From the IMG/VR virus record IMGVR_UViG_2744054962_000004: a stretch of DNA of 28,075 nucleotides; one strand, 5' to 3'. The notes under the pieces are model-generated. The model ran no database searches and was not told the DNA's origin. It saw only the letters and a list, made by a program, of their open reading frames with translations. A program made the translations under genes and the position numbers. Numbering within the stretch: the stretch's first letter is position 1; each line of letters begins with the position of its first letter. This document shows positions 1-25,992 of the stretch, piece by piece. Source of the stretch: a virus (lineage: Duplodnaviria > Heunggongvirae > Uroviricota > Caudoviricetes).

Positions 1-1254
1 ATGCTGGAACAAATGGGCATTGCCGCGAAGCAAGCCTCTTATAAATTAGCGCAACTCTCCAGCCGCGAAAAAAATCGCGTGCTGGAAAAAATCGCCGATG
101 AACTGGAAGCACAAAGCGAAATCATCCTCAACGCTAACGCCCAGGATGTTGCTGACGCGCGTGCCAATGGCCTTAGCGAAGCGATGCTTGACCGTCTGGC
201 ACTGACGCCCGCACGGCTGAAAGGCATTGCCGACGATGTGCGCCAGGTGTGCAATCTCGCCGATCCGGTGGGGCGGGTAATCGATGGCGGCGTACTGGAC
301 AGTGGCCTGCGTCTGGAGCGTCGTCGCGTACCGCTGGGGGTTATTGGCGTGATTTATGAAGCGCGCCCGAACGTGACGGTTGATGTCGCTTCGCTGTGCC
401 TGAAAACAGGTAACGCAGTGATCCTGCGCGGCGGCAAAGAAACGTGTCGCACTAACGCGGCAACGGTGGCAGTGATTCAGGACGCCCTGAAATCCTGTGG
501 CTTACCGGCGGGTGCCGTGCAGGCGATTGATAATCCTGACCGTGCGCTGGTCAGTGAAATGCTGCGTATGGATAAATACATCGACATGCTGATCCCGCGC
601 GGCGGGGCTGGTTTGCATAAACTGTGCCGCGAACAGTCGACAATCCCGGTGATCACTGGTGGTATAGGCGTATGCCATATTTACGTTGATGAAAGCGCAG
701 AGATCGCTGAAGCATTAAAAGTGATCGTCAACGCGAAAACTCAGCGACCGAGCACATGTAATACGGTAGAAACCTTGCTGGTAAATAAAAACATCGCCGA
801 TAGCTTCCTGCCCGCATTAAGCAAGCAAATGGCGGAAAGCGGCGTGACGTTACACGCAGATGCTGCTGCGCTGGCGCAGTTGCAGACAGGCCCCGCGAAG
901 GTGGTGGCGGTTAAAGCCGAAGAGTATGACGATGAGTTTCTGTCATTAGATTTGAACGTCAAAATCGTCAGCGATCTTGACGATGCCATCGCCCATATTC
1001 GTGAACACGGCACGCAACACTCCGATGCGATCCTGACCCGCGATATGCGCAACGCCCAGCGTTTTGTTAACGAAGTGGATTCGTCCGCTGTTTACGTTAA
1101 CGCCTCTACGCGTTTTACCGACGGCGGCCAGTTTGGTCTGGGAGCGGAAGTGGCGGTAAGCACACAAAAACTCCACGCGCGTGGCCCGATGGGCCTGGAA
1201 GCACTGACCACTTACAAGTGGATCGGCATCGGTGATTACACCATTCGTGCGTAA
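1..1254 (+). CDS. proA: gamma-glutamyl phosphate reductase (glutamate-5-semialdehyde dehydrogenase)
   Basis: 417-aa ORF, ATG at 1 to TAA at 1252-1254. Translation is recognisable along its whole length as enterobacterial ProA, including the ...[13 protein letters not shown]... active-site cysteine region. Codon usage matches a high-expression core gene. Confidence 0.96.
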
Positions 1255-1368: not shown

Positions 1369-1444
1369 GCCGATATAGCTCAGTTGGTAGAGCAGCGCAT
1401 TCGTAATGCGAAGGTCGTAGGTTCGACTCCTATTATCGGCACTC
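1369..1444 (+). tRNA. thrW: tRNA-Thr (anticodon CGU)
   Basis: 76-nt cloverleaf: GCCGATA acceptor stem, GCTCAGTTGGTAGAGC D-arm, anticodon loop TTCGTAA (anticodon CGT), GGTTCGACTCC T-arm, TATCGGC 3' acceptor strand. The last 3 nt read CTC instead of an encoded CCA (see findings). Confidence 0.92.
1409..1442 (+). repeat. left att core: 34-bp direct repeat within the 3' half of tRNA-Thr
   Basis: cgaaggtcgtaggttcgactcctattatcggcac is identical to 14987..15020; the copies diverge immediately outside. Confidence 0.85.
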
Positions 1445-2036
1445 ACACAACAAAATCCTTTAAAAACAATATCTTAATGCGATTATCGCTCTCAAGATAC
1501 AATCTTTTTTTAAGGGATTCTATGACCAACAGTTGCCGCTATGGTTAACAGTGGCTACTCAGGGATGTTAGCACGTAGCGGCCTGTAGTTGTAAAGCTCG
1601 AACAGGTACAAAGCGTGAACAGTCCCCACGAACCGCTATCAACTCGAAGCTGATGACGCTGCCAACGTCTCTAAATCCTCCCGAAACAGATTGATCATAC
1701 GCATTTAAGCCCGATGTGCGGCCTTGTGGCTGCGTAAACAGGTGAATAGTGGTAAACGTACCTGCACACGATATGCAGGCTCTGCCAGCGCTTCGCTCAC
1801 GCTCCTGACGGTACACGAGCACCCTGATAAGGTGTGATCCATCTGACAATCTGATGATGTCGCTACGCTCCGCTTGTTGCTTGTACCACTAACGGGGCTT
1901 TATGGCTTCTATTGACTTAAATTAGATAGTTGCAAGGAAATAAACTAAAGATAATTTAAGTGTTGAGCGGTTTACTCGTATTGCTTGAGGGCAGTATCAT
2001 TACAACATTAATGGGATTTTTAAGGGACTGATGTGA

Positions 2037-3486: not shown

Positions 3487-3539
3487 ATCACTGTCACCAT
3501 TACGATTAAATTTGATCCAATATGAAGTAAAGTAAGTAA

Positions 3540-3749
3540 CTATTTTTCGTTCTCTGATGCCTCAAACGTCTTGGAGTGAGGGCAGGACTGTGAGCGCGTC
3601 ACCAGCGTGAACAGATAAATGTTGCTTTCGTAAGTGCAAAGCCGTTTTCCGCCCTGTAACTCTTGTTCGTCGGGGTTGCTCATGGTGATTTTTCCTGCAT
3701 GAGCCGCCAGCGGCAGCAGTGCCACAACAAATAGTAAAATTTTCTTCAT
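3540..3749 (-). CDS. small secreted protein (signal peptide MKKILLFVVALLPLAAHA), function unknown
   Basis: The track ORF 3540..3755 begins at GTG; the in-frame ATG at 3749 gives MKKILLF... with a classic signal peptide and an AHA-G cleavage context. Mature part ~50 aa with two Cys. Confidence 0.45.
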   Translation of the reverse strand: MKKILLFVVALLPLAAHAGKITMSNPDEQELQGGKRLCTYESNIYLFTLVTRSQSCPHSKTFEASENEK

Positions 3750-4729
3750 TTCCACAACCTGCCCTGTAGGTGTCCCGGCTCTTTATCCTCCAAGTTTACA
3801 TTCTCCTGTTGAAAATATCCCCGGCTCTGTTGGTGATCTGCTAGACCGTCAGCCCAGACCCTCGGTGAAAAGCGCTTTTCTTCGCCAAATATCGCTACGT
3901 GATGCCTTCAGCGACACGCCTCACTGCAACAAGCAGTGCAGTTACACAATGCTGCTTTGGGCTGAGGCAAGGGAGATAACTTGATGTTTTGAAGTGCCTC
4001 TGTTCACTAATTGTACAGTCATTTAACATATTGTATCTTGCATGTACTTGACTGGAATGGTCAGGTATTGCTTTTCGGAGCGTTGATGCGAAGCGGGGTA
4101 CACAACAGCGATTTCACCAACAGAAGGAAAGCATTCAGGAGGATTCGAGGTGAGTTCTCTTGTTCAAGGATTTTGGATGAGTTTGCCTGGTCATCAGACA
4201 ATTTCAGGTTTCAGGCCTTTGAAGCTGCCAGCGTGTCAAACCTGCTGAAAGTACAATTTCCTATTTGCCAGCAGAAAAAGAGCTACTACGGCGACGTTAC
4301 CACAACGGGTTGAAGGTCTGCCATCACCTGGTGATATTCACCGAGCCAGGCCGCCACTGTTTCGTACCATTTCCCACAACAATGTAAACAGCCACATCAA
4401 TAGCCCAGCATACGCTCTCAGCGCTGCTCTACGGCGTTATCTCCACACAATCGTGAACTGACAACGCCATGATCCACGACTTCCCATAGCGCGATAGAGG
4501 AGCCTCCAGAGGGGGGTGGTTTTGGTTTTTTGTATGATGTTTTATTTTTTATGGAAAAATGGTTCAGATAGGTGGTTGTGTTTAGCCTCATATCCACCAA
4601 CATATTTAACGCACCCAGCACTGGCGCGGCTTCGTTGTGTAGATCACGACATAACAATCACTACATCCCACAGGCGAGCCAGTGACAACAGACAGGATTT
4701 TCTATCAATTAACAGGTATTAAAGCTCTA

Positions 4730-5129: not shown

Positions 5130-5300
5130 GAGGTTACTCAGTTACGGCAGGAAGTACCAGTCAGAAGTCATCGGTAACGAATACATATGAAAAGAAGTTT
5201 TCATCGGTAATGGTTACAGATGGGTCATCAGTAACGGTTACGCACCAATAAGATCAATATATTAAGATCAAATAAAAACCATTAAGATCTTTAAAACCTT
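5130..5300. repeat. iteron/operator-like direct repeats in the divergent control region of island 1
   Basis: TCATC(G/A)GTAA(C/T)GG occurs at ~5168, ~5201 and ~5225, with a related GGTTAC motif nearby. A(A/T)TAAGATC occurs at ~5247, ~5261 and ~5281. Confidence 0.5.
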
Positions 5301-5684
5301 AAGGTCAAAGGCAGGGTGAACTGGTGTTCACTAGTTGGTGTTAAGGAGTGATGCTTCTGTATCGCTCTGCTCTGAATGGCTCTGCCACTTCAGATATGTG
5401 TGGAAGACAAGCCGCGAGGCGCGTCAGTCAAATGTGGATCGAGCACGGCGCAGAGGAGCTTTAAACGCGACGTAACTCCCCCCTTGGAGGGGCGGCGGTC
5501 CCCCCTCAATCTCGCAAGGCGATAACGGCCCTCTGATTCTGTGGCGATGCCATGAGGCACAGCGGTCCTGTAACGCTCCCTGTCGCGTTCAGAGCGTCTT
5601 TCTCCTGTTGCTGGTATTTGTACCGCTTCGCTTAGGGCGTTGAATCTTAAGCGTCTGAGAGCGTTTTGTGATAAAGGGATTGAC

Positions 5685-5800
5685 AAAGAAAAGGTATATG
5701 TATAAAGTTGCGGGGTATTGACATAAAACACTTCCATTTCTTTATTCTTTAAGTGAGAAATCGGTTGACAAAGAAACTAATTTATAATAAACTATATATT
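5685..5800 (+). promoter_or_regulatory. promoter region for the 5852.. operon with duplicated TTGACAAAGAAA boxes
   Basis: TTGACA at 5690-5695 and 5765-5770, both followed by AAGAAA, plus a third TTGACA at ~5720; A/T-rich -10 candidates follow each. Exact -10 and start site not resolved. Confidence 0.4.
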
Positions 5801-5851: not shown

Positions 5852-6280
5852 ATGGGGAAACCTGTTCTGTTCGATTTCTCGAACGCCACTGCCTCAGAGA
5901 TTGTCGCTGCAATCGATGCAAAAATTACCACAGCTCAAAATCTGCACGCCTTCCGCACTCGTATGGGCGGTGCCAAGAAGGCCGATAAGCTCTATCCAGC
6001 TACTCGCGAAGCACTGAACATCATTAAACGCCTGCGTCAGCAAGCGAAAGACGCAAAAATCATCCGGGATATTCTTAAACCATACTCAGCAGAGTTGGCA
6101 AAAGGCCGTGATGTTATGGAAATCATTGAACCAGTACTCTCTGCCTGGCGTGTCTATTACGCTTCTCATGGCATCGGCTTGATGAATGAACAGATCCTTC
6201 TGCTTAAGATGATTGAGTCTGGCGGTGAACTCGAAGGCATTACCGGAAAACCCATTCCAGAACTGACCACAACCGAATAA
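5852..6280 (+). CDS. hypothetical protein, first gene of the island 1 rightward operon
   Basis: 142-aa ORF with ATG start and SD AGGAGA 5 nt upstream; no recognisable motif. Confidence 0.55.
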   Translation: MGKPVLFDFSNATASEIVAAIDAKITTAQNLHAFRTRMGGAKKADKLYPATREALNIIKRLRQQAKDAKIIRDILKPYSAELAKGRDVMEIIEPVLSAWRVYYASHGIGLMNEQILLLKMIESGGELEGITGKPIPELTTTE

Positions 6281-8030: not shown

Positions 8031-8363
8031 ATGAAAAACGTAAACGACATCCGCGCCGATATTCTCGCCGCAATGCAGGCCGCTGCCGAACCGGAGAGCG
8101 GAGATCTGAATAAAAGCGCCGAGCAGGTGTTGGCTGATGCCATCGAGGGATATCTGACCGCTTCGACTGCAACAGCCAGCAAATCAGCCCCGAAAGCAAA
8201 GACCATAAAGGAAAAAGGGATCGCTCTGTGCCACCAGGCCCAAGGTTATAGCGCTAATCTGCGTCCGGTAAGTCTCATGATGAAGGCAAGTCTTGATGAG
8301 CTAACACCTGAACAACGCGCCGCGCTTGAGCGTCTGGGTTACGATATCAATCAGGGGGTGTGA
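8031..8363 (+). CDS. hypothetical protein (110 aa)
   Basis: In-frame ATG at 8031 inside the GTG-initiated track ORF 7974..8363. Stop TGA 8361-8363 overlaps the start of the next gene (TGATG), suggesting translational coupling. Confidence 0.45.
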   Translation: MKNVNDIRADILAAMQAAAEPESGDLNKSAEQVLADAIEGYLTASTATASKSAPKAKTIKEKGIALCHQAQGYSANLRPVSLMMKASLDELTPEQRAALERLGYDINQGV

Positions 8364-10510
8364 TGTCTGGTAATATTATAGTTAGCACCCTAACAAACCG
8401 AGTGGTCTGGGATGTCGATCAGACAAGTTACGGCAAAGCCTTAAAGGCTGTTAAATCCATCAAAGCTGCTCACGAGAAGCCCGCTAAAGCGCTGGAGAAG
8501 GCCCAGAAGAGGACCGCTCAGATGGAAGGCAAGGCTTCACTAGCATCGGCTAAGGCTCAGACAGCGAAGCTCCGCCAGGCTGAACAATTGTCAAAACAGC
8601 AACAGAAACAAGCTCAGATACAAGCCAAAATGGAGCGGGACGCAATCGCCCACGCCAATAAAATGACCTCATTACAGGCTCGCCAGTTATCTCAGCAGGA
8701 GCAGGCAGCACGGCAGAATGCCCGTTTAGCAGCGATTTCTGCAAAAGTGCAGGCCGCAGCCAGATCACGAGCGATGACCTACAACCCAAACATGGGCGGT
8801 CAACATTACGATCCTGGTCTTGTTTCCCGCCAGACTGACGCAATGAACCGTGGTCACGGCGCTGTTGCTGCCGACATTGCAGCCACTAAAAGGGCTATGG
8901 CCTTAGAAGAAAAGCGCCAGCGTGAGAAAGAGGCCAGTCTTAAACGCCAGAGCACTGCATACGATACTCTGCGCCGTGCCAGTTTAACTATCAGTCATAT
9001 CGAAGGCGCTAGCCTGGCTGACAAGATGAAAGCTGTGCAGGCAATCAAAGAGGCTACCAAGGGATACTCCGAGCAGCGTTACACCATCGCAGAAATGCGC
9101 CATGAACTTGCTAAAGCGACTCTGGAAACCAGGCGGCAGGCACGTATTAACCGCCAGATTGTTAAAGATAAAGCGAAAGCCAAGCGAGCAGGGCGCATCA
9201 ATGCTCAACGTCTGACCAGTGAACGTAGCGAACGTGGTTATGGTGGCCTCGCTGCTACTGGTGTAATTGCAGGTGGTTCCCTGATTGGCTCAATGGGGGT
9301 TGCTCGTGTTGGTCAGACACTACAGGGCAGTGTTGAACGCAACCAACAGATGAAGGCTTTACAGTCTCAAGGCATCTCACGTCTTGAATATGAAGCTGTG
9401 CGCGATGTTGTCGCCAACAAAACCGGCTTTAATATTTCTCCAGACAAAGCCCTTGATTTTTCTGCTGACTATAACGACAAAGTGGGCCAGTTGACGGCTA
9501 ACGGAACATGGAAGACCAACAAAAACGGTCAATCAACGTTGTCCGGTGGTGGTGAACTTGGTGACCTTATCAACGCTATTGCAGGCAAATCCAACGTTGC
9601 CACGGCAAAGCGCGTTGTTAAAGAACTCCAGGGTATCGACTTTAATCTCTTCCTTGTGTACCTCAAGCAATTGCAGAAGACTTTTAAGTTCACGGATAAA
9701 GAAACAGCCGCTTTTGCAGAAGCGATCAACGACGCAAGCAAGATCCTTCCGGCATTTGCTGATGGTGGTGAAGCTGTTCAGAAACGTATGGATGACCTCG
9801 CCCGGAATGGTTACGCCCTGAGCGAAGCACAACAGGAACAGCTAAACCGCCTAAGCGCTCTCTCTGTTGAATATTCAAGGATCAACGATTCGTTGAGTGA
9901 TATTTTCAGCTCAGGTTTTGCTGATGGGTTGGGAGAGGTTGGCAAGAACACTTCCAGCTTTAGCAAAGGTATGGCTGGCCTCGTTCCTATTATGGATAGT
10001 TTGGGGAAGGCTGTAGGCCAGGTGACTGCTGATATGTTGTTATTTGCCGGACGGGTGGGCCAACGTGTTAACGAGGGTGCAACACTTCCGGATGCAGTCT
10101 ACAACACCGTTGTGGATGATTCCGCAAACGGTGCTGCCGATTGGATTAAGGAAAAGACCGGCTTTGATCCACGTAGCATCGGTCAGACGCTTAAGCAGAT
10201 TTACCCGTGGCTAGATAGTTCAGCACCAAGCAATATCGGCTCAGGCACAGCGTATAACGATCCAGCGCTAGCGTTGAATGTTCCAGGTCTAAACTATCAA
10301 ACACCCCAGCAACCAACGTTTACGGTTCCGACAATTGATAGCATAGTTCAGCGACAGCCGATTCCTGTTGCGGTCACTGGCGAAGCTGAGATTAAACTCT
10401 CACCGCTTGATATTAACGTGAATGACGGCGCTATTAACGGTTTGATTGATACAAAACTGAGGAGCTATGAGCAGGCACAGAACAACATGATCCTTGGTAT
10501 TGCTCAATGA
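8363..10510 (+). CDS. large coiled-coil protein with Gly-rich hydrophobic segment (tape-measure-like or scaffold-like phage structural protein)
   Basis: 715 aa from ATG 8363, SD AGGGGG. N-terminal ~300 aa are K/A/Q/R-rich heptad-like sequence. Central GGLAATGVIAGGSLIGSMGV hydrophobic Gly-zipper. N-terminus and architecture parallel the 613-aa protein of island 2 (24151..25992). No Walker A motif. Confidence 0.6.
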   Translation: MSGNIIVSTLTNRVVWDVDQTSYGKALKAVKSIKAAHEKPAKALEKAQKRTAQMEGKASLASAKAQTAKLRQAEQLSKQQQKQAQIQAKMERDAIAHANKMTSLQARQLSQQEQAARQNARLAAISAKVQAAARSRAMTYNPNMGGQHYDPGLVSRQTDAMNRGHGAVAADIAATKRAMALEEKRQREKEASLKRQSTAYDTLRRASLTISHIEGASLADKMKAVQAIKEATKGYSEQRYTIAEMRHELAKATLETRRQARINRQIVKDKAKAKRAGRINAQRLTSERSERGYGGLAATGVIAGGSLIGSMGVARVGQTLQGSVERNQQMKALQSQGISRLEYEAVRDVVANKTGFNISPDKALDFSADYNDKVGQLTANGTWKTNKNGQSTLSGGGELGDLINAIAGKSNVATAKRVVKELQGIDFNLFLVYLKQLQKTFKFTDKETAAFAEAINDASKILPAFADGGEAVQKRMDDLARNGYALSEAQQEQLNRLSALSVEYSRINDSLSDIFSSGFADGLGEVGKNTSSFSKGMAGLVPIMDSLGKAVGQVTADMLLFAGRVGQRVNEGATLPDAVYNTVVDDSANGAADWIKEKTGFDPRSIGQTLKQIYPWLDSSAPSNIGSGTAYNDPALALNVPGLNYQTPQQPTFTVPTIDSIVQRQPIPVAVTGEAEIKLSPLDINVNDGAINGLIDTKLRSYEQAQNNMILGIAQ

Positions 10511-11438: not shown

Positions 11439-12473
11439 ATGGGACTATCAACCAATTTCAGCTACGCGGATTACACCAATACCTTTGTTAACATGGATGC
11501 AAAGAACACTTTGCTGTCCACGCTTAATGTTTTCAATGATCGACAGACTTCGGCTAGTCCAAAGGTCAGCCTTGATATCATTGATGAAGTAGCCCAGAAG
11601 GTGGCAAGCTCTGTTAATCGTTACGGCTCTGAGTGGTCCAGCATTCCTAAGCGTAGCTCTAGCAATCACCTTATCGAAGCTCCGCTTTATGCTTATCAGG
11701 ACCGTATTACAGCGGCAGACGTGCAACCATACCGCAAACCAGGTTCCGACCTGCAAATGTCTGTAATGGATGCGGTCACTTCTTCTGCTGTCGCAATGCA
11801 CGATAAGTACATGCGTACCCGTGAGCGGATTTTTGCTGATGCGCTTTTTCGTAATACCGTCGAAGCGACCTACACCCAGCAGCCAATCATTTCCTGGGAA
11901 GATGAATTTGGATACCAACAGGCAACCGGGACAATCAAAACCAGCGTTAGCTCTGGTGACCCACTTCGCAGCCTCGATGATGCAGTAACCGCTGCTAAAG
12001 TGCGCATGGGGGGCCTGGCTGGTCAGCTTGATGGATTTATCCTGTTTGCAGGTAGCAATGTTTATCGCGGCATTAAGTATCACCCTGATGTTCGTCAGAA
12101 TGTTCAGTTCGGTGTGCTTGATCGGGATGTTCTGTTTAATAAAGAAGTGCTTCCGGCATTCTCAACATTCATCATTGAAAATGTTCGAGTGGTGGAGGTC
12201 ACGGATCAGGCACTATACGGAATTGGTCCGGATGAATCCTTCCTGGTTCCACGCTTTAGCAAACCGCTGTCTTCGGATATTGCTCTGCCCTTCGGTTATG
12301 TGGCAACGGCTACCAGCCGCAATCTTGATCTGGCATTTGCTGATCCGGTTGATTTCCGTATCTGGAGCGTACAAGACAAGTTTAAGAACGTTGAGCTATT
12401 CGCGGAAAGCTCTATCTTGCCTGTTGTGTACCGCCCGGATTTCACTACACGACTGACGAACGACGCAGCGTAA
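11439..12473 (+). CDS. phage-structural-like protein, ~344 aa (major-capsid-E-like or major-tail-like)
   Basis: ATG start with SD AAGGAG 8 nt upstream. N-terminal region is similar to the island 2 343-aa protein (STNFSY...NTLLSTLNVFND vs STYFGV...NTLITNLDLFDV). Size and pairing with the upstream small gene mirror the lambda D/E arrangement, but fold not verified. Confidence 0.5.
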   Translation: MGLSTNFSYADYTNTFVNMDAKNTLLSTLNVFNDRQTSASPKVSLDIIDEVAQKVASSVNRYGSEWSSIPKRSSSNHLIEAPLYAYQDRITAADVQPYRKPGSDLQMSVMDAVTSSAVAMHDKYMRTRERIFADALFRNTVEATYTQQPIISWEDEFGYQQATGTIKTSVSSGDPLRSLDDAVTAAKVRMGGLAGQLDGFILFAGSNVYRGIKYHPDVRQNVQFGVLDRDVLFNKEVLPAFSTFIIENVRVVEVTDQALYGIGPDESFLVPRFSKPLSSDIALPFGYVATATSRNLDLAFADPVDFRIWSVQDKFKNVELFAESSILPVVYRPDFTTRLTNDAA

Positions 12474-12758: not shown

Positions 12759-12917
12759 TATTCAATATGTTGTTGTTTGTTGTCAAAAGAATCATTGTGT
12801 TTGTTTTTCGCGCATTTACTTGACACCCTGATGTAGATTGCGTAACCTTCACATAAAACTATTGCCTGCGATGTGTTCAGGTATTGTCGGAAACCCATCT
12901 TTAACCGAGGAGGTAAA

Positions 12918-13106: not shown

Positions 13107-13685
13107 ATGGATGATGTGTTACAACCTGACCTTCAGATTCTTCCCCTAAATCATTTCCATAACCACAAACGTTTCAGCAGTGGTTCAGAAGAATTCCAAC
13201 CTCTTAAATCTTTTCTTCAGAAAGATGCTTTATTATTTCAAGATGGTTGTATAGCTCAAACTTATGTTGTTGTTGATGACAACATGCGGAAGGATAAAGA
13301 AGAGCCTCTCGAAACATTCCCTCATAAAGTATTAGGTTATATAACGCTGACTTGCAGCCAAGTTAACCTTAAAGAATATGACTTAGGGGACTGTGTTCGT
13401 GCAAATACGTATGAGTACTTACCTGCCGTCAAGATTGCCCGTTTAGCTGTGGATGCAAAGTGTCGGACTGGCGGGATCGGTTCAATGCTGTTCGAATACG
13501 CCTTATTAATGTCATTGGATGATATTCGCCCTATGGTTGGGTGCAGGTTCTTGATAACCGATGCTAAGAGAAGTGCCATGGATTTTTATTATAAAAAAGG
13601 GATGGAGCTTCTTGATACGCAAGAAAATCAAGAGGCTGACCACCCCATAATGTTCATCGATCTTTTCACATTACTTGAAAACTGA
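13107..13685 (+). CDS. GNAT-family acetyltransferase, candidate GNAT-type toxin (TacT/AtaT-like)
   Basis: 192-aa ORF. ...LPAVKIARLAVDAKCRTGGIGSMLFEYAL... matches the GNAT acetyl-CoA-binding motif A (R-x-x-G-x-G after a beta strand). Preceded by a small ORF in toxin-antitoxin-like order. 3' end overlaps the integrase 3' end by 20 bp (convergent). Confidence 0.6.
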   Translation: MDDVLQPDLQILPLNHFHNHKRFSSGSEEFQPLKSFLQKDALLFQDGCIAQTYVVVDDNMRKDKEEPLETFPHKVLGYITLTCSQVNLKEYDLGDCVRANTYEYLPAVKIARLAVDAKCRTGGIGSMLFEYALLMSLDDIRPMVGCRFLITDAKRSAMDFYYKKGMELLDTQENQEADHPIMFIDLFTLLEN

Positions 13686-14871
13686 TCATCTCCACATACC
13701 CCGATAGCTCCCTCATCCCCGCGCCAGCGCTGTACGTTCTGAAACTCTCCGTTTTGCCTCGCTCATGGCCCACGATTAGGGCGATCCTGTCTTCTGGTAC
13801 ACCATGCCGATCAAGCTGGCTGATAAACATTCCTCGCAGACTATGAAACACCTTCCGCTCCGTGCCTTTCTCACCCAACGCTTTACGTTTAGCCCGTGTA
13901 AATCGCTGTGTATGCCACGTTGAGCGCTTGCCGTCTGCACGTTCGGTGATGCTGGCATGGTAGAACAGAAAGCCGTTGTGGTTGTTCTGGATGAGGTTTT
14001 TAATCAGTTTCGTCAATCGGCTATGAATTGGAACCAGGCGAGCCGCATTGCGTGTCTTACCCTCCGTCACATCGAAACACCATACCCCCTCAACGGTTTT
14101 GATATTGCTGATTTGCAGAGAGCAGATTTCGTTAAGGCGCATACCGCTATACATTCCCACTATCGCAACGGCTTTCATCTCTTCATCAAGCATCGCATAC
14201 ACCTTAGCCAGTTCGTCACCGCTAAAGGGTTCGTAGCTTTCTCGATCATGGCGCACGTCCAGTTTGTGGCCCGTGAATACATTGGCTTTCGGTGCGTCGT
14301 GATAGCGGTTTTGGGCTTGTGCCACTAGTTGGGACAGACAGCCAAGATAATTCGCCAGTGTCTGGCTGGCTTTCTCCTGCTTGGCGCTGTCTAACCAATC
14401 GGTGACCATAGTCCTGTTGATTTCCTGCAACTGGAAATCCTTACGCCGGAAATGAGCCGTGAAGACCTCCACCGCCTTAATGTACTTGCTCAGGGTAGAC
14501 AGCTTGCGCCTGTCACTGTGTTGGACAATAAATTCATCCCGCAGTTGAACAAGGGAGGGACACACACGAGCCGTGGCGAAGTCTATCCCATTATTTTGGC
14601 TTACATGCTGGTTGATAGAGCGCAGTTCCACCAGGACGCGATCGACACTGTTACGTTGGGGTTTTGGCTTGAGTCGGTCTCTGATAGCAAAAAATTCGTG
14701 CATGACTTTGTCACGAATGATTCGGGCTTCCCTGATATCTGCCGTGCCAGTTGTACGCATGAATGCTGTTCGATTCCCAAAAAGGGAACGCATATAAGGC
14801 GGAATAGTGACCTTGACGGAGTACACCGAAGAGTTTTCTTTAACAAGGTACGCATTAGGCTTGTATTTCAT
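13666..14871 (-). CDS. tyrosine recombinase / phage integrase (island 1)
   Basis: 401-aa ORF with ATG start. Box I region ...GMRLNEI..., then ...KVFHSLR..., ...GHERGKTESFRTY... consistent with the R...HxxR...Y catalytic signature. Sits next to the att repeat and shares a 49-aa identical block with the island 2 integrase. Confidence 0.9.
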   Translation of the reverse strand: MKYKPNAYLVKENSSVYSVKVTIPPYMRSLFGNRTAFMRTTGTADIREARIIRDKVMHEFFAIRDRLKPKPQRNSVDRVLVELRSINQHVSQNNGIDFATARVCPSLVQLRDEFIVQHSDRRKLSTLSKYIKAVEVFTAHFRRKDFQLQEINRTMVTDWLDSAKQEKASQTLANYLGCLSQLVAQAQNRYHDAPKANVFTGHKLDVRHDRESYEPFSGDELAKVYAMLDEEMKAVAIVGMYSGMRLNEICSLQISNIKTVEGVWCFDVTEGKTRNAARLVPIHSRLTKLIKNLIQNNHNGFLFYHASITERADGKRSTWHTQRFTRAKRKALGEKGTERKVFHSLRGMFISQLDRHGVPEDRIALIVGHERGKTESFRTYSAGAGMRELSGYVEMISFQVM

Positions 14872-14986
14872 CTTTCCCCCGATCTAATATTCAGGGGCAA
14901 CTGTGATCAGTTGTGTCAGTTTTGCCTTTCAGGAGCAGCGCATACGGTTCGAAGAATCAATGACTTGTGAAACACGTCATTGGAAT

Positions 14987-15022
14987 CGAAGGTCGTAGGT
15001 TCGACTCCTATTATCGGCACCA
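14987..15022 (+). repeat. junction att core: displaced 3' fragment of tRNA-Thr (with CCA) between island 1 and island 2
   Basis: cgaaggtcgtaggttcgactcctattatcggcacCA: identical to tRNA positions 41-74, followed by an intact CCA end; no 5' half present, so not a functional tRNA. Confidence 0.85.
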
Positions 15023-15628
15023 TCAAGAAAATCAATAACTTAGCTTAACTTCTCTAAGAAATTGTATCTTCTGTTATCACTTACAAACGCCTATACGTTG
15101 TTATGGGCTTTGGTAGTGTAACACGTATGGGCGAGTAGTTCCCAGGCTCAACCTCGTAACAAGTTCCTTTGAAGCTGGAAGACGTGCCACCGTCTCTAAA
15201 CCTTCTACCAAAACTCTTAGCAAGATGTTCCACACCTGGCGCGGTGTCCAATGATGCTACACGTCGTGAGACGTTGCAGAGGATAAACAGGCTAAATGAT
15301 GGGAAGAGTTTTAAGTGCAATAGTGGATCAAAGCCCACCTCTTCAAAACCTAACTTGATCGGGAAAGAATCAAGCTCTAGCACGGTTTCGTCCACCGGAG
15401 TACAACGGGTGCCTGATAAGAGAAGAACTGCTAAGACTTCATAGCTTTTGTGAAAAAGCCCTTTTTAGTGGATACGCCTACGGCGCTTATTTTTTGGTAT
15501 AACCATCAAAGGCGCTTTATGGCTCCTATTGTCTTGAAAATGTATCTTTACTTGTATTGTGTTTTATGCGTAGTCTCCCTGTGTAGTATGTAACTTGTTA
15601 ATTTTCATATGAATACAGAGGCAACACG

Positions 15629-15781
15629 ATGAAAAATATTGCAGCTATCAAACGTAATAACCGCAAGATTCACGCTCGTAAGTTCCTGTCTACGCCAGAA
15701 GGAAAAGCCTGGCTAGAGCGTAAACAGAGAGAGAACGAAGAAAGAAAACTCCTTAGTGAGTTGAAATGGCTTAAGGATTGA
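15629..15781 (+). CDS. small basic protein (50 aa), function unknown
   Basis: ATG 15629 with SD GAGG 7 nt upstream, stop TGA 15779-15781; absent from the ORF track because it is under 60 aa. MKNIAAIKRNNRKIHARKF... is highly basic. Confidence 0.4.
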   Translation: MKNIAAIKRNNRKIHARKFLSTPEGKAWLERKQRENEERKLLSELKWLKD

Positions 15782-16006: not shown

Positions 16007-16400
16007 AACTTCCTCCGGTTTTGGGATAGGAGGATTAGAACATGCATTAAATGATGTTGCAAGAATGGCAATTTACCCTAATAGTCTACTATTCACCTCA
16101 ATCTACGTCAACCAATATTTGATGTAGATTTAATTTTCTTTTAAAAACAATATGTTGTTATTTGTTGAATTTTGGGGTTAGGTTGTTTTTTGAACGTTTT
16201 CATCAAGTGTAAAGATACGTTTAGCCTTCATAGTGAGTTCAGTTACTGTCTTTTTCTCTGAAATCGGCGCAAACGTGATCATCGCTTGAGGTTGCTGCTC
16301 TTACTTCTCAAATTGTGATGGAGAACGATAAAGGTTAGAGGGCACTTTTATTTTTTTAAGCAAGTGTATAGCATAAGAATAATCTAAAAAGGGAGGTTAT

Positions 16401-16952: not shown

Positions 16953-18080
16953 CAGTTAGAGAAGCTCTTGTAGAGGCATTATTGAGTTATTGGTTTTAAT
17001 ATTTTTGTGCCTCTATGGGCTTTTTTTGCCTTTTTGCAATGTAGAAGAGAGCACAGGAATCGTTAAAATTAATTATTGGGGTATTTAAGGTTATTTTCAG
17101 GTGATTTAAGGGTATTAAACGTAATTTAAGTGATTAAAATATAAACAGGTTGTTCTGTATCTTATTGATTTATAAGGTTGTTTTCAAATAAAGGTAAATA
17201 AAAAATAAATAGCCATAAATAGCTATAAATACATCTAAATACATATGAATCCCCTCCCTTATGGCTAGATTGCGAGAGGTGCTTAACGCGATTTTCAGCG
17301 CCCCCCGATCTGGAAAATCCAGAATCCCCAAATATCAGCAAGGAATTTTCTTGCGTAATCAACATCGTTTTTACCTATTAAATCATTACACAGAAAGCCT
17401 TTCTGTAATGTCTCTCACTAAACTTTCACTAAACACGAGAATGATCGGTTTTATGTCGGATCAGATGCTAGAAACAGCACCACGTCTCACAAGGGCTGTA
17501 AGCGATGAAACCAGTGTTTATGCGGGTGCAGGTCAAAATATAGGCCAAAATACATTTAACATAATAATCGTAATATGCACTAAGGAACACATAGAACGCC
17601 TTGAGTTGATGTATCAGGGGAAAAATGGTGTATTTTTTACGTAGGAGCACGAGAGGGCTTCTATTGACTTTTGTATGCTATGAAATATAATAGAAGATTT
17701 TTTATTTTTATGTTGATAGTGATTGCACATTAAAGATTGAAAGCAAATTTAAACATAAATTTTCAACACGTGAAAGAACTTGTTCAACAAATGATAGAAC
17801 GTTTATTGAGCAACAATTTTGCAGTGATGCGCTATATGCCGCATAACATAAGGCTTTGCTGATGATGACGCAAAAGTGAAGAAAGTAAGAATTGCATTTT
17901 GAAGCCATTTTTCTTGGATTTTTTAGTATGGAATTACACAGGGATTAATCATCAATTAATCTTGAATTTAAGCTTGTTTTAGATGTTTAATTTTTGATAG
18001 CAAGAAAGACTTTTACTGATTATAAGAAGATCATTGCACAGATGTTATGTGATGGATGTAACGGTAGGTCACTGTGAGCT

Positions 18081-18217
18081 ACCCCCACAGAATTCTGTTA
18101 TCCTTAACTTTTAAAGAAATATGCACCCTAACAGAAAACTGTTACCCCAACCCTAACAGAATTATGTTAGACACCCCCACAGAAAACTGTTAGCCACCCC
18201 TACAGAATTTTGTTACC
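18081..18217. repeat. five iteron-like direct repeats (~22-23 bp), candidate replication origin or operator array
   Basis: acccccacagaattctgttatcc (18081), accctaacagaaaactgttacccc (18125), ccctaacagaattatgttag (18151), acccccacagaaaactgttagcc (18172), acccctacagaattttgttacc (18195). Consensus CCCYMACAGAAWWNTGTTA with internal dyad ACAGAA..TCTGT; four copies are tandem at ~23-bp spacing. Confidence 0.7.
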
Positions 18218-18908
18218 TATTAGATCAACTATCAAACTACAATTAAATTATCTTTTATAAATTCTTTTATCTTTAAAGAATAATTATAGGGATACCCGTT
18301 AGGGAGTCTTCGACTATCCCTTAATCTATTGGCATTCGCCAGAACCTTGCACAAGTTAGAGTGTTAGTCAGTTAGACTGATACTTCTCATAACACATAGT
18401 TTTTGTTTGTTAATGTTAGTTAGTAGATCTATGTTCGCTTTCCGCTCACAACGAATATGTAATCTACTATGTGCAAATAGCCTACGGCTTGCGTAAGGCT
18501 AAATAGTCTTGCGCTGTGCGCAGAACGATAATTAACTAACTACCATCTAACGATCATCAATCATCTAAAATAAATTTCTTGTGCAATGTTCTTGCGAATG
18601 CAATTAGGGTAGCGTTACCCCTTTGGGGATGCTAACGCATAACTATAGATCAACCATCAAACAGACAAAAAAGAAAAATATGGTTTAAAGATGTTAGGTA
18701 GTAGATGAGTTTCTACCGCTTAAATCAAACCGTAGGCGAGCTAAACAGCCATTACATAAGGGAATGTATTGTTTTTATCAAAACCTCGTTAGAACGCGTT
18801 TTAGAGCGTTTTAGACAATAATGAAGAATTGGAGTATTCGTAAGAGCACGAATTGCTAAGAAAAATCATAACACACTGAAAATGATCAATATTTTTATGG
18901 CTGGGGGG

Positions 18909-18937
18909 TTGACAAAAGCCTTTAGTCGTGGTAAAGT
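18909..18937 (+). promoter_or_regulatory. sigma70-like promoter for the island 2 rightward operon
   Basis: TTGACA (18909-18914), 17-bp spacer, TAAAGT (18932-18937), about 120 bp upstream of the first ATG (19059). Confidence 0.4.
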
Positions 18938-19058
18938 AATATTAGGGGCAGGAAAACATTCTTATCCTTTAAATAATTAAACCAATGCATCGCACTTTGA
19001 AGCCCAAGGCTTGCAAGGTGTCTATTTCTTTTAACTAAATAGAATAGGAGGTTAATTA

Positions 19059-19259
19059 ATGAAATATTTCACTCCACAGGATATTGTGGAAGCCTGGAAA
19101 CGTGGTGAGATCAACCGTTTTAAAGTAAGGATGAACAGGAACACAGCGCGACGCTGTGGTTATCCAGAGCGTGAAAAATGCTTTGACGATGCACTAAAAA
19201 TTATTGATGAATTAAGAAAAAATGAAAAAGGATCTGAAAAAGAATCTGAAACAGAGTAA
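19059..19259 (+). CDS. small hypothetical protein (66 aa)
   Basis: ATG with SD AGGAGG 7 nt upstream; charged, helical-looking; no recognisable motif. Confidence 0.45.
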   Translation: MKYFTPQDIVEAWKRGEINRFKVRMNRNTARRCGYPEREKCFDDALKIIDELRKNEKGSEKESETE

Positions 19260-19278
19260 AGAAGAGAAGGAGAAAACT

Positions 19279-19449
19279 ATGAGCGAAACTACAGAAAAGA
19301 AAAGGCAACCACGCACTTGCTTTCATATTCCTGATGAAGTATTTCAGGTGTTGTTTAAAGAAGCCAGAAGTAAACGTATCACTGTTACAGATTACATTCT
19401 TGATATGTTGAAAAGAGAGGCTGAAACACTCTCAAACAAAAGCAAGTGA
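19279..19449 (+). CDS. ribbon-helix-helix-like DNA-binding protein (56 aa)
   Basis: ATG 19279 with SD AAGGAG 6 nt upstream (preferred over the upstream ATG 19222, which overlaps the previous gene). ...RTCFHIPDEVFQVLFKEARSKRITVTDYILDMLKRE... has the strand-helix-helix pattern of Arc/CopG-type proteins. Confidence 0.5.
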   Translation: MSETTEKKRQPRTCFHIPDEVFQVLFKEARSKRITVTDYILDMLKREAETLSNKSK

Positions 19450-19502
19450 TTTTTATCACCATAGTAGCGCCGTAGAGCGTGATTACATCAAGGAGATTTT
19501 TA

Positions 19503-22731: not shown

Positions 22732-23763
22732 ATGAATGATTTATCAACATATTTTGGCGTTAATACTGCGGTAGTAACTCCATTTGCTTATGAGAATGCA
22801 CTTAATACCCTGATTACTAATCTCGATCTGTTCGATGTGCAATATCATACAGAAAACAGCATTCTTCTTACCGACCTGATTGATCAGTTTGTGCAGGTAG
22901 CTGGGGAAACCTCGCCTTACGCTCAAAGCGACTGGAACGCCTCTAAACGTCAGGAATGGTCAAACAAACTTTTCCAGATGAAACACGTCGGCAGTATTAA
23001 CGCTGTTACTTCTCGTGACCTGGAACAATACAGCCGCCAATATCCAAACCGTTCTGATGCTATGCTGGTAGCGGTTAATGATTTCTCTGAGGCACATTAC
23101 CGTTCACACGCAAACCGTGTTGAAGTGGATCTGATTACCGCGCTGCTGGGCCTGAAAGTTGAATCTGAATATGCCGGACAAGGTGATCTCGACTTCCTCG
23201 ACGGTCAGGCTAAAACCACGGTACCCGCTATCGACTTTGCATCGACTACTGTTAACCCGTTCCTTGCTATTCGTAAAGCGGTGCGCTTACAGAGTGAAAA
23301 GCTGGGGTCTGGTCTTGCTGCAAAGCGAACTGGTGTAATTATCTTTGCTGCTGGCGCTGCTGCTGATGGTTTGTCATCTAACCCGCTGATCAGTGACATG
23401 GTGAAATATGCAGGTGATGCGAGTGCTACGGCCCTGTTTACCCGTATGGTTGATTCTAACCCAGCCTATGACTCTTTCCAGATTGGTGGGATCACTGTTA
23501 TTGATGTGTCAATGTTTCCTGAGATTGTTGCTCACATCGGAGAGAACGGTTTCGCAATTGTTCCAGTAATGGATAAAGCGGCACAGTGCTATCAGCTTCA
23601 TAGCGGCGTTGGTGTGCGTCATGCTGAGTTAGGTCAAGATGCCGTGTTACATCACCAATATCTAATCAAGGATGAATTCCAATTCCCATCTGTGGTTACT
23701 GAGACATCTTATCTGCCAGTAAACAACATTCCGCAAGCTATCATCTTCGGATCTGCTGCGTAA
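22732..23763 (+). CDS. phage-structural-like protein, 343 aa (major-capsid-E-like or major-tail-like)
   Basis: ATG start. N-terminal similarity to island 1 protein 11439..12473; same size. Fold not verified. Confidence 0.5.
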   Translation: MNDLSTYFGVNTAVVTPFAYENALNTLITNLDLFDVQYHTENSILLTDLIDQFVQVAGETSPYAQSDWNASKRQEWSNKLFQMKHVGSINAVTSRDLEQYSRQYPNRSDAMLVAVNDFSEAHYRSHANRVEVDLITALLGLKVESEYAGQGDLDFLDGQAKTTVPAIDFASTTVNPFLAIRKAVRLQSEKLGSGLAAKRTGVIIFAAGAAADGLSSNPLISDMVKYAGDASATALFTRMVDSNPAYDSFQIGGITVIDVSMFPEIVAHIGENGFAIVPVMDKAAQCYQLHSGVGVRHAELGQDAVLHHQYLIKDEFQFPSVVTETSYLPVNNIPQAIIFGSAA

Positions 23764-24150: not shown

Positions 24151-25992
24151 ATGTTAGAACTTAACGTCAGCCGCTTATCAAACGTTGTCACCTTCCAGGT
24201 TGATCGACCATCATTAGAGAAAGCAAAAGCAGAAGTAGAAAAACTTCGTAAACAAATGGCGGCGGTGAAAGATATAGAATTGCGTGTTAAGACACATAAA
24301 CAATCAACCGCTAAAGCAAAAAAAGACGTAGACGATATTGCTAAAAAGCAAGCACAGGCAGATAAAGCCAATGCTAAAGCACAATTAGCCGCTCAACGTG
24401 TAGTTGCAAGAGAACAAAAAGCCCTGGCAGCACGCAAAGAGAAGGCAGAATTAAAGCTTTTAGACGTTGGATCAAGCATTAGTGCAATGCACCGTCTTTC
24501 TGTAGCGGAACAATATAAAGCTATTGCACAGGCTAGAGAAATTGCCCTCCAATATGAAAGAGGCGCTATTAGTCTGGCACGTATGAATAGCCAAATGAAA
24601 CGCCTACAACAGCAACAACGTAAGATTAATGGCAATCGTAACGCTCACGCTAAAGCCTATGCACCTGTTAAGGGTAGCGGGAGTATTGGCGGCGGTGCTG
24701 CGGCTGTTATGCTGGGTGGCTTAGGCGCTGGCGCTACGTATATGGCTATGAGCAAAGCCTCTGAATTTGTTACTAACAGCTTTGCGAATGCTGAAACGCT
24801 GGGTGAATTGTATAGCCGTGCGAAGCTGGGCGGTGTAGACGTTAACCAGATGAACGATGTTGAACAATGGGCGTATAAAAACGGCGTTGATTCAATGATG
24901 GGCGAACAAGGTAAACGTAAGTATCTGGATCAGATGAAAGATGTGCGTGAACGTGCAACCAAATCTTATGATGAAGCTGAATATGTAGTTGATAAGAAAA
25001 CTGGTAAAGGAGAATGGAAGGGCGGCGATAGCGGCATCAATACTTTAATGAATGAAGGATTCCTAACTAAAAAGGATCTAAAAGACTTTGCTGATAATCC
25101 GGCTGGTCTGGTTAGTAAAGCAGTTCAGGGAATGGTAGCTAAAGGCTATTCAGATGCACAAATCGGTAGTCGTCTGGAAGATCTGGCTGATGATTTGATG
25201 CTCACCTCTAAATACTGGACACGCTCCGCTAAAGAAGTGGAACAATCAGCACGAGAACAACGAGAATCAGGGCGCTGGGTAACACAGGCACAACAGGAAA
25301 GCGTTATTAAATTCCGTGAACTGAATAATGCACTTAGTGGGCTTTCTGACTCACAAGGGATCGCCTTTGTTGATGGCTTTATGAAATCTCTCGATCCTGC
25401 TGTGATTGAAGAGTTCAAAAAGAGTATGGTTGCAATGCTGCCAATGTTTACCAAATTAGGCGAGGCTATCGGCGGATTGGTTAACGCCGTAATGAAAGCA
25501 ATCAACTGGCTGATGAAAAACGACGAGAAGACGGAAGCTATTCAGAAGAATTTAGGTGATGCACCGCCACTGTCTAACGAAGGGATGAAACAGAATCTTT
25601 CTAATCTCGTTCCTGATCAATATAAAGGCGCTGGCACCGGAACAACTAAGCCAGATAACAGCAATTCCCTGTTTAACACTATTAAAGGCTGGTTTACGCC
25701 AGAAGAAACGGTAGGCGGGGCGCAGGCTGTAAATCAATACACTCTCGAAGGACAAAACATTGCAAATCTGAAACAGAGTGCAGCACAACAAGCTATCAAG
25801 ACTCCTTCTTACACCTTTGCACCTGTTATTAACTTCAATCCAGAATTACAAGTAAATGCAGAAGTGCCGCTAACTATCGAATCAGACACCGGACGATTGA
25901 GCGAATTTATCGACTTCAAATCAAAGGCATCCTCCGCTGAGTTTAGCAAGCTATTAACGCTGGGTGTTATGTCAGGCGGGTCAACCTATTAA
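24151..25992 (+). CDS. large coiled-coil protein with Gly-rich hydrophobic segment (tape-measure-like or scaffold-like)
   Basis: 613-aa ORF with ATG start. K/A/Q-rich coiled-coil N-terminal third, then GSGSIGGGAAAVMLGGLGAGATYMAM hydrophobic Gly-zipper. N-terminus parallels island 1 protein 8363..10510 (LELNVSRLSNVVTFQVD vs IIVSTLTNRVVWDVD). Confidence 0.6.
   Translation: MLELNVSRLSNVVTFQVDRPSLEKAKAEVEKLRKQMAAVKDIELRVKTHKQSTAKAKKDVDDIAKKQAQADKANAKAQLAAQRVVAREQKALAARKEKAELKLLDVGSSISAMHRLSVAEQYKAIAQAREIALQYERGAISLARMNSQMKRLQQQQRKINGNRNAHAKAYAPVKGSGSIGGGAAAVMLGGLGAGATYMAMSKASEFVTNSFANAETLGELYSRAKLGGVDVNQMNDVEQWAYKNGVDSMMGEQGKRKYLDQMKDVRERATKSYDEAEYVVDKKTGKGEWKGGDSGINTLMNEGFLTKKDLKDFADNPAGLVSKAVQGMVAKGYSDAQIGSRLEDLADDLMLTSKYWTRSAKEVEQSAREQRESGRWVTQAQQESVIKFRELNNALSGLSDSQGIAFVDGFMKSLDPAVIEEFKKSMVAMLPMFTKLGEAIGGLVNAVMKAINWLMKNDEKTEAIQKNLGDAPPLSNEGMKQNLSNLVPDQYKGAGTGTTKPDNSNSLFNTIKGWFTPEETVGGAQAVNQYTLEGQNIANLKQSAAQQAIKTPSYTFAPVINFNPELQVNAEVPLTIESDTGRLSEFIDFKSKASSAEFSKLLTLGVMSGGSTY

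Follow-up and report, generated by a model that had tools for sequence, protein, structure and literature searches.

A candidate large structured RNA just inside the attachment sites of tRNA-targeting islands of Enterobacterales

Why should two otherwise diverged integrative islands share non-coding sequence just inside their left attachment (att) sites? The question is raised by a DNA stretch of 28,075 nucleotides (nt) (IMG/VR virus record IMGVR_UViG_2744054962_000004, Caudoviricetes; the whole of it is called the window below) which carries two islands in tandem behind the tRNA gene thrW. Island 1 extends from 1443 to a thrW repeat at 14982-15022, and island 2 from 15023 past the end of the window; the 3' 41 nt of thrW (1402-1442) recur in the repeat, the sole difference being the CCA end. 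An initial annotation, made from the sequence, had pointed to the first ~500 bp of the islands (1443-1930 and 15023-15540) and to two motifs within them (motif 1, 1646-1680; motif 2, 1897-1918). Our analysis suggests that each block rather probably encodes, as a gene of its own or as part of a tRNA 3' trailer, a large structured non-coding RNA on the plus strand. The predicted length of this RNA is ~390 nt in the first island (1535-1914) and ~445 nt in the second (15089-15531), and it would consist of two domains with three pseudoknots. It is, with similar likelihood, a backbone component of one family of Enterobacterales integrative islands that targets tRNA-Gly(CCC), tRNA-Leu(CAA) and tRNA-Thr(CGU). 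We are considerably more confident in the narrower prediction that the block acts as a free-standing folded RNA and not as a set of DNA sites or as an mRNA leader.

The motif strings and coordinates of the initial annotation were both verified in the sequence. Outside the integrase gene, only three blastn matches with E < 0.05 were found between the islands: 1885-1921 with 15502-15538 (81%, E=0.004), 1646-1675 with 15171-15200 (87%, E=0.043), and a non-collinear match of 20 nt between 12763-12782 and 16148-16167 (E=0.043). The two motif matches are collinear and both are located 150-480 nt inside the att repeat. The reported alignability thus reflects a real homology, but a span of ~500 bp overstates the pairwise signal, as the rest aligns poorly. 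Profile hidden Markov models (HMMs) were made from other genomes, with both window copies and all island-2-like sequences excluded. The model of the 5' domain recovered 1510-1710 (E=2e-50) and 15072-15214 (E=2.4e-23), that of the 3' core 1677-1927 (E=6e-84) and 15368-15540 (E=2.8e-8), which shows that the blocks are homologous and are members of a large family. A copy at leuX of strain S88 bridges the two window copies, i.e. it has island-2-like as well as island-1-like segments. The true extents given above differ slightly from those first proposed, and the first ~90 nt past each att core (1443-1534 and 15023-15088) form a separate AT-rich spacer. The statement that no open reading frame (ORF) is conserved was borne out: the minus-strand ORFs 1568-1849 and 15081-15395 have no meaningful similarity (BLASTP E=0.026) and no Pfam match.

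Further copies were collected by pattern and by profile. The pattern CCTGATAAG-N63-93-GCTTTATGGNTNCTAT was found in 27 IMG/VR contigs and in 30 GTDB species genomes, the genera including Kluyvera, Enterobacter, Serratia, Buttiauxella, Raoultella and Cedecea, as well as Tatumella, Sodalis, Pantoea, Citrobacter and Dryocola. A further search, with the unrelated pattern GCATTNNAGCCCGATG-N15-45-AAACAGG taken from the opposite end of the core, yielded 11 viral loci and at least 120 from metagenomes. These loci had not been chosen on the 3' motifs, and among them CCTGATAAG was present within 260 nt in 111 of 122 cases and GCTTTATGG in 86 of 122, so the conservation of the 3' motifs is no artefact of the search. 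With nhmmer 148 near-full copies were obtained, of which 106 were unique and 61 remained below 96% identity. In other words, the similarity is not confined to the two copies in the window, as the initial annotation had allowed, but extends over a family of more than 100 distinct copies. The RNA is kept across several Enterobacterales families (Escherichia, Enterobacter, Kluyvera, Serratia, Pantoea, Tatumella, Sodalis and others). A distant blastn search found parts of the block in 1,164 of 5,426 complete E. coli genomes, some of the matches being partial; sampled matches are directly after different tRNA genes (glyU in strain D3, leuX in S88). E. coli 2016C-3878 and CUVET19-1704 are also carriers, the latter with both islands. 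The element is absent from the thrW, leuX and glyU loci of K-12, and no copy of the RNA was found among the INPHARED phages.

The block is a real feature that has remained unannotated and is probably undescribed. In RefSeq, the interval that separates the tRNA or att repeat from the first island gene is empty in both islands. In a scan of the whole window with Rfam 15 at the gathering threshold only the tRNA passes, and at E<=10 the regions 1300-2100 and 14900-15700 gave chance-level matches only (Fluoride 10.9 bits, SNORA22 18.7 bits and similar). No description of the RNA was found in the literature, sequence strings included; the pipolin paper concerns a different tRNA-Leu site.

The initial annotation had proposed to align further islands and to look for covariation, and compensatory changes in helices were indeed found. 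Thr, Leu and Gly islands all have the 3' core. In the model, P1 closes a junction of P2, P3 and P4, and the pseudoknots PK3 and PK5 tie the core to the 3' tail, which ends in the near-invariant GGGGCUUUAUGGNUNCUAUUG (Table 1). The 54 pairs of the model (P1-P7, PK3 and PK5) were counted on a MAFFT alignment (A4) of the 61 sequences below 96% identity. The proportion of cells that are paired was 88.3%, as compared to 80.4% after shuffling (0 of 500 shuffles reached the model) and 30-36% when the partners were slid by 1-3 columns. Two-sided changes were seen at 30 pairs (shuffled 19.6, slid 12-18) and in 252 cells (shuffled 82, slid 21-77), and the covariation score was 0.237 (shuffled 0.120, slid 0.03-0.07). 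Mutual information (MI) with average product correction (APC) ranks P3, P4b, PK3 and the long-range PK5 at the top. The compensatory changes are also visible by eye, with variants such as CCUGCA/UGCAGG, CCUACA/UGUAGG and CUUGCA/UGCAAG in P3, GCUC/GAGC, AGCC/GGUU and GGCC/GGUC in P4b, and UAGUGGUA/UACCACUA, UGGUGAUA/UAUCACCA and UGGUGGUA/UACCACCA in PK5. PK5 is 98% paired in A4, and two of its pairs change between GC and AU.

The 5' domain comes in two types, type A with Thr and Leu and type B with Gly. Motif 1 is confined to type A, i.e. to Thr and Leu copies, and corresponds to the 3' strand of pseudoknot D3, hairpin D4 and the conserved UCUCUAAA. In the alignment of type A (A5, 34 sequences) 89.9% of the cells are paired, against 81.2% after shuffling (0 of 500) and 31-44% with slid partners; 105 cells have two-sided changes, as compared to 34 in the shuffled alignments. 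The first pair of D2 takes all four forms (CG, GC, AU and UA). The covariation is weaker in type B. The island 2 copy carries expansions in the core; its core helices were read by eye, and MAFFT misaligns the middle of this copy. Relative to island 1, compensatory changes are found in D1, D2 and D3, and two-sided changes preserve D1, P1, PK5 and P7.

Table 1. Coordinates of the tRNA gene, spacers, predicted RNA elements and integrase genes in the window
Feature	Position	Strand	Basis or remark
proA	1-1254		E. coli
thrW, tRNA-Thr(CGU)	1369-1442	+	ARAGORN; Rfam tRNA 71.8 bits; 3' part is the att core, attL of island 1
AT-rich spacer, island 1	1443-1534	.	read from sequence; T7 run 1505-1511
Island 1 predicted RNA, 5' domain type A	1535-1686	+	alignment A5; independent HMM E=2e-50
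Hairpin D1	1535-1543/1574-1582	+	island 1
D1b	1545-1549/1567-1571	+	island 1
D2	1583-1586/1602-1605	+	island 1
Pseudoknot D3	1595-1601/1644-1651	+	island 1
Hairpin D4	1655-1658/1666-1669	+	island 1
Island 1 predicted RNA, 3' core	1687-1914	+	alignment A4, MI pairs
P1, long-range closing helix	1687-1700/1832-1845	+	island 1
P2	1717-1723/1728-1734	+	island 1
Pseudoknot PK5, long-range	1747-1754/1884-1891	+	island 1, MI
Pseudoknot PK3, 3-bp loop-to-flank	1757-1759/1768-1770	+	island 1, MI
P3	1761-1766/1774-1779	+	island 1
P4a-c	1786-1826	+	island 1
P6	1862-1868	+	island 1
P7	1867-1872/1893-1898	+	island 1
Invariant 3' tail GGGGCUUUAUGGCUUCUAUUG	1894-1914	+	motif 2 (1897-1918) placed here
Island 1 tyrosine integrase, DUF6538 + Phage_integrase	13666-14871	-	Pfam; far island end
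Partial thrW repeat	14982-15022	+	attR of island 1 and attL of island 2
AT-rich spacer, island 2	15023-15088	.	read from sequence; aligned with 1443-1534
Island 2 predicted RNA, 5' domain	15089-15215	+	motif positions; independent HMM E=2.4e-23
Island 2 D1	GCCUAUACG 15089-15097 / CGUAUGGGC 15124-15132	+	
Island 2 D2	CGAG 15132 / CUCG 15153	+	
Island 2 D3	GGCUCAA 15145 / UUGAAGCU 15169	+	
Island 2 D4	15181-15194	+	
Island 2 predicted RNA, 3' core with expansions	15216-15531	+	motif positions; HMM E=2.8e-8 (15368-15540)
Island 2 P1	CUUAGCA 15216 / UGCUAAG 15429	+	
Island 2 P2 cap ACGUC-GUGA-GACGU	15261-15274	+	expansion with GUGA tetraloop
Island 2 J2/3 UAAACAGG	15284	+	
Island 2 PK5	UGAUGG 15297 / CCAUCA 15503	+	
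Island 2 conserved CCUGAUAAG	15412	+	
Island 2 P7	GCGCUU 15483 / AAGGCGC 15509	+	
Island 2 tail	15511-15531	+	
Island 2 tyrosine integrase, DUF6538 + Phage_integrase	26798-28075	-	Pfam

The strand of the folded molecule can be read from the pairs themselves. In A4, 248 cells are G.U or U.G and 72 are A.C or C.A, and GNRA loops (GAAA, GCAA, GUGA, GCGA) are read on the plus strand; this excess and the loops indicate that the folded strand is the tRNA (+) strand. A conserved coding frame was found neither in the comparison of minus-strand ORFs and in Pfam, nor in the lengths of the mini-ORF and of the stop-free stretches, the latter not exceeding those of shuffled sequence (a median of 75 aa for each). 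The initial annotation held that conservation of the blocks implies function, and among the options that it named a conserved small RNA comes closest; nevertheless, the RNA is not small but large (~390-450 nt), two-domain and pseudoknotted.

Several observations weigh against this interpretation. The sequences are related, so the shuffle controls overstate the significance and the slid-partner control is the fairer one, and the fold model was partly derived from the same sequences on which it was scored. There is too little variation in P4a, P4c, P6, P7 and D4 to speak for or against these helices. For P1 the MAFFT alignment gives only 76% of paired cells, as the register shifts in divergent subtypes and these are misaligned. 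The single-sequence folding energies are ordinary (z of -0.49 in island 1 and -0.92 in island 2 for the plus strand, -0.44 for the minus strand), so it is covariation that has to carry the case for a structured RNA. The RNA ends are undefined: there is no evident promoter, and the sole terminator-like feature, P7 followed by CUUUAU, is weak. A third of the copies, island 2 included, are found behind a promoter-less tRNA fragment, hence read-through from the tRNA is not the sole route to the RNA. As to a function, no complementarity was found to the att core or to island sequences.

The position of the RNA relative to the tRNA was determined for the 144 copies with enough upstream sequence. A complete tRNA is found upstream of 81 of them (Gly-CCC 42, Leu-CAA 31, Thr-CGU 7, Ala 1), and the core starts 191-256 nt past its end on the tRNA strand. 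Another 47 copies are preceded at the same distance by a tRNA 3' fragment only, so that in total 128 of the 144 copies sit 190-256 nt after a tRNA or att repeat. A copy behind a fragment represents either the second position in a tandem array, as island 2 does, or an attP junction; as such copies make up about a third of the total, tandem accretion of islands at one tRNA seems to be common. At eight loci (L099, L113, L115, L122, L136, L159, L182 and L186) a divergent integrase gene is located ~340 nt upstream of the core. In other words, the RNA has a fixed position, ~90 nt inside the att core and in the orientation of the tRNA.

Consensus scans between the tRNA or att repeat and the RNA detected, in both copies, no plus-strand sigma-70-like promoter and no intrinsic terminator, which makes read-through plausible. 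There is no terminator-like site in 1443-1535 and the spacer is AU-rich, which fits transcription from the tRNA promoter. In the integrated state the RNA might be made largely in this way and be freed by the RNase E and RNase P cuts that mature the tRNA, a route that we put forward with some hesitation. A weak promoter of its own would be another possible source, which we consider somewhat less probable. TTAATG-18-TACAAT (1474-1503), a promoter candidate noted by eye, is semi-conserved in Thr-type copies only and was not relied on.

The genetic neighbourhood gives some indication of the partners of the RNA. The integrases tested from RNA-bearing loci all consist of DUF6538 and Phage_integrase (7/7); they are 33-98% identical and not of the P4 type, and a search with the integrase as query found close relatives only. 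Since int is at the opposite island end, int, attP and RNA become adjacent after excision (int <- attP -> RNA). No conserved neighbouring protein was found in the cargo slot downstream of the RNA, where the largest protein cluster is present in 31 of 112 distinct loci. Immediately after the RNA, the cargo is often of a defence-like kind (e.g. DUF4145, AbiJ-NTD4). The next gene is convergent and 8-63 nt past the tail both in plasmid fragments and in a small island of Klebsiella, and the first gene of island 1 has its own promoter-like site at 1971-2000. The variable or convergent downstream genes and this promoter-like site argue that the RNA is no leader of a particular gene.

As int, attP and RNA form the only conserved module, a role in the cycle of integration, excision and transfer is favoured. 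The near-invariant single-stranded junctions (GCAUUUAAGCCCGAUG, UAAACAGGU, CCUGAUAAG and the tail) suggest a bound partner and would be expected to bind a protein. We would guess, with little confidence, that the RNA serves the int-attP module, e.g. by sensing or controlling the integration state, excision or transfer; a helper-phage factor, a host factor and catalysis are other possible roles. A more specific proposal, which we consider rather unlikely, is that the RNA is an architectural or regulatory working partner of the DUF6538-type tyrosine integrase, or else a catalytic RNA that processes the tRNA-island transcript. Such a partner might, for example, set the directionality of recombination in place of a protein excisionase, or report whether there is a live tRNA promoter in front of the island. 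Two further ideas were discarded: a T-box-like UGGN/discriminator rule does not fit the tail by eye, and a hammerhead reading of CUGAUGA finds neither a helix II nor a GAAA after it and has no Rfam match.

The alternative that survives best, though still an unlikely one, is a cis-acting 5' leader (a riboswitch, attenuator or antiterminator, perhaps with a mini-ORF leader peptide) that governs read-through into the cargo. The RNA does point into the island, towards cargo that is often defence-like as said above; P7 followed by CUUUAU is similar to a weak terminator, the loop of which is engaged in PK5 much as in an aptamer with an expression platform; and in 28 of 80 copies the conserved AUG opens a 5-codon ORF (MASIV and a stop). 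However, what would be the expression platform is the best conserved part, which is the opposite of what is seen in riboswitches, and no Rfam riboswitch or leader model matches. The downstream genes are unconserved and in several contexts convergent within the short distances given above, and the first gene of island 1 has its promoter-like site. The leader peptide suggested by the initial annotation fares no better, since the ORF that starts at the conserved AUG varies between 5 and 200 codons (median 10), the next gene is often convergent, and the two variable positions of motif 2 are the second base of codon 2 and the first base of codon 3, i.e. both are non-synonymous.

It is also conceivable, if quite improbable, that the fold forms in single-stranded DNA (ssDNA), as a single-strand origin or priming site, an ssDNA promoter or a recombination substrate during replication or transfer of the excised island. 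The attP of CTX phage is a folded ssDNA substrate of tyrosine recombinases, and the integron attC is a further precedent of this kind; moreover, the element is at the island end, beside a tyrosine-recombinase site. Covariation by itself cannot tell ssDNA from RNA, a caveat that has been stated before (PMC5737381). On the other hand, recombination here uses an ordinary tRNA 3'-end core that is repeated as duplex, the capsid proteins encoded by the islands imply packaging of double-stranded DNA, and a fold with three pseudoknots, GNRA loops and many G.U pairs is what is typically seen in RNA. Furthermore, a better candidate for an origin is present in island 2: five copies of a ~23-nt repeat, ACCCCnACAGAAnnnTGTTAnC, at 18073-18218, in an ORF-poor stretch upstream of helix-turn-helix (HTH)/rep-like genes. 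These repeats are probably iterons, or operators, of the island 2 origin, which would accordingly be located there and not in the RNA region.

Duplex DNA sites of attP were the first explanation offered by the initial annotation, and we find it very improbable that the blocks are integrase arm-type, integration host factor (IHF) or excisionase sites, or cos/pac signals, kept together with their conserved proteins. There are points in its favour. The blocks adjoin att in the copies surveyed, like lambda-type arm, IHF and Xis sites, and the islands have one integrase family. The spacer contains an IHF-like AAACAATATCTTA at 1464-1476, just inside attL and with one mismatch to the consensus WATCARNNNNTTR, and an inverted repeat, CAATGAC..GTCATTG (14957-14981), adjoins the att core on the integrase side and is a candidate pair of core-type integrase sites. 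Likewise, TTCTATGAC (1518-1526), just before the RNA, resembles TTCTATTGAC (1907-1916) in the 3' tail, with a looser likeness in other subtypes; the two can be read as direct repeats and may bracket the RNA. Nevertheless, the motifs are 200-470 nt from the att core, past the usual arm lengths (~150-250 bp), and lie outside the spacer in covarying helices. Two-sided changes preserve over 40 base pairs, long-range and pseudoknotted ones included, which duplex protein sites do not need, and the excess of G.U over A.C singles out one strand. The core, with motif 2, spans the att specificities and is equally conserved in Thr, Leu and Gly islands, the integrases of which are only 33-55% identical, and no INPHARED phage has the RNA. 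The attP idea does hold for the spacer 1443-1534 and no further. No base-pair covariation was seen in the island 1 spacer, which is probably the P' arm of attP, and 1464-1476 is a probable IHF-type site outside the motifs first cited. Downstream of Thr and Leu tRNAs a motif block AAAtTCCTTtaAAAaCA..TTA is conserved, and Gly tRNAs have a related site; sites akin to the IHF-like one recur at the corresponding place behind Leu and Gly tRNAs.

Finally, a decayed protein gene, or functionless sequence drifting from a recent common ancestor, can practically be dismissed: some copies do have internal deletions (L015, L037, L041, L102) and core fragments flanked by insertion sequences (IS) are apparent passengers on plasmids, but the block has no open or conserved frame and is kept across several Enterobacterales families, with near-invariant motifs beside compensating helices, whereas the DNA of the island genes that flank it cannot be aligned.

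The free-standing RNA that we favour can be compared to several known systems. Among these are GOLLD and ROOL, found for the most part in Firmicutes and related groups. They are large RNAs beside tRNAs in prophages, and co-transcription with the tRNA has been suggested for them (Weinberg et al., PMC5737381). Like these, the RNA described here is large, multi-junction and pseudoknotted and is found in prophage-like elements, often by tRNA genes. Unlike them, it is fixed ~90 nt inside att, tied to one integrase family and found in Enterobacterales; it is also shorter (390-450 nt versus ~580-800 nt) and has no match to their Rfam models even at E<=10. The likeness is one of context only, not of membership. 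A closer positional parallel is 3'ETS-leuZ of E. coli, which is short and little structured and acts as a sponge of small RNAs by base pairing. Both come right after a tRNA, on its strand, and could be set free when the tRNA is processed, whereas the RNA described here is island-encoded, ~400 nt long and highly structured, and is only predicted to be co-transcribed. A location downstream of the tRNA, on the same strand and with no intervening terminator, was found here as well, except for the copies behind a partial tRNA.

The bridge RNA of IS110 and the omega RNA of IS605/IscB are likewise structured RNAs in a non-coding element end by the recombination site, with the recombinase gene adjacent in the circular form. 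The partner here is, however, a DUF6538 tyrosine integrase and not a DEDD, TnpB or IscB enzyme, and the conserved core does not change with the tRNA that is targeted. Guide-like complementarity between the 3' 45 nt of the tRNA and the cognate RNA reached at most 6-7 nt, with a mean of 4.2 as compared to 5.7 in mismatched controls. A 10-nt identity, CAAGCTCTAT, between tRNA-Gly and P3 of one lineage was judged coincidental. The CI immunity RNA of P4 is a satellite-encoded regulatory RNA that is processed by RNase P, and it is a precedent for RNA-based control in integrative satellites. It is ~69 nt long and pairs with seqA/seqC in its own element; the RNA described here is six times larger, and a search for antisense targets in either island found no complementarity of at least 12 nt and only two 11-mers. 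Without target-specific complementarity to the att core or the island, a guide-RNA or antisense mechanism has no support. What sets this predicted large RNA of a mobile element apart is a fixed att-adjacent position and a link to one tyrosine-integrase family.

Truncated copies were also encountered. In total, 73 plasmids (Escherichia, Salmonella, Citrobacter, Enterobacter, Klebsiella, Providencia, Serratia and Morganella) have a 5'-truncated core followed by convergent relE-relB. Two were inspected (L192 5992-6215, L193 5992-6215), and in them the fragment is found between IS elements such as IS26 and IS5; it looks like a hitch-hiking island fragment. Besides one small island, plasmids have only such IS-flanked fragments with relBE. 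In E. coli O157:H7 and O55:H7 an isolated 85-nt piece of the 5' domain (9001-9086 in L005, from O157:H7) is 82.6% identical to 1535-1619; it is located between a LysR regulator gene and a hypothetical gene, away from any tRNA, and is probably a relic of an old island.

A few further features of the window may be mentioned. Both islands are ~13 kb long and each encodes a lambda-E-like major capsid protein (island 1, 11439-12473, PF03864; island 2, 22732-23763, a weak match to PHROG 29) and a tape-measure-like protein (8360-10510 and 24151-25992, respectively); island 2 also has a Dit-like tail protein (26040-26717). No portal or terminase gene was annotated or detected in either island. Such a gene set is satellite-like but unusual, and it is not known to match the layout of P4, PICI, cfPICI or PLE. 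Upstream of the gene 5852-6280 of island 1 there are two pairs of 22-24-nt direct repeats (5668-5776 and 5168-5222) that may be operator sites. Long stretches without an ORF of at least 80 aa are found at 3487-4729 in island 1 and at 17645-19478 in island 2. The complete thrW at attL of island 1 has no encoded CCA (TATCGGCAC followed by TCACAC; 1436-1448 was compared with 15016-15027), whereas the internal att repeat reads GGCACCA followed by TCAAG, i.e. with CCA; in this strain the 3' end of tRNA-Thr(CGU) would therefore have to be trimmed and CCA be added to it.

Few bacterial RNAs are both large and complex in their fold, and the ones with a known function take on elaborate tasks such as catalysis, guiding and scaffolding. 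The RNA described here is present in hundreds of sequenced E. coli genomes and in many Enterobacterales, where genetics, RNA probing and phage work are easy, and the islands that host it target tRNA genes and carry defence genes together with phage-like capsid and tail genes. If it were indeed an integrase partner or a catalytic RNA, this would be an unprecedented role of a large RNA in site-specific recombination by tyrosine integrases. In any case it gives direct access to how such islands perceive whether they are integrated, how they move, or how they use the tRNA promoter of the host. We also note that island-end sequence routinely dismissed as "att arms" can conceal RNA genes.

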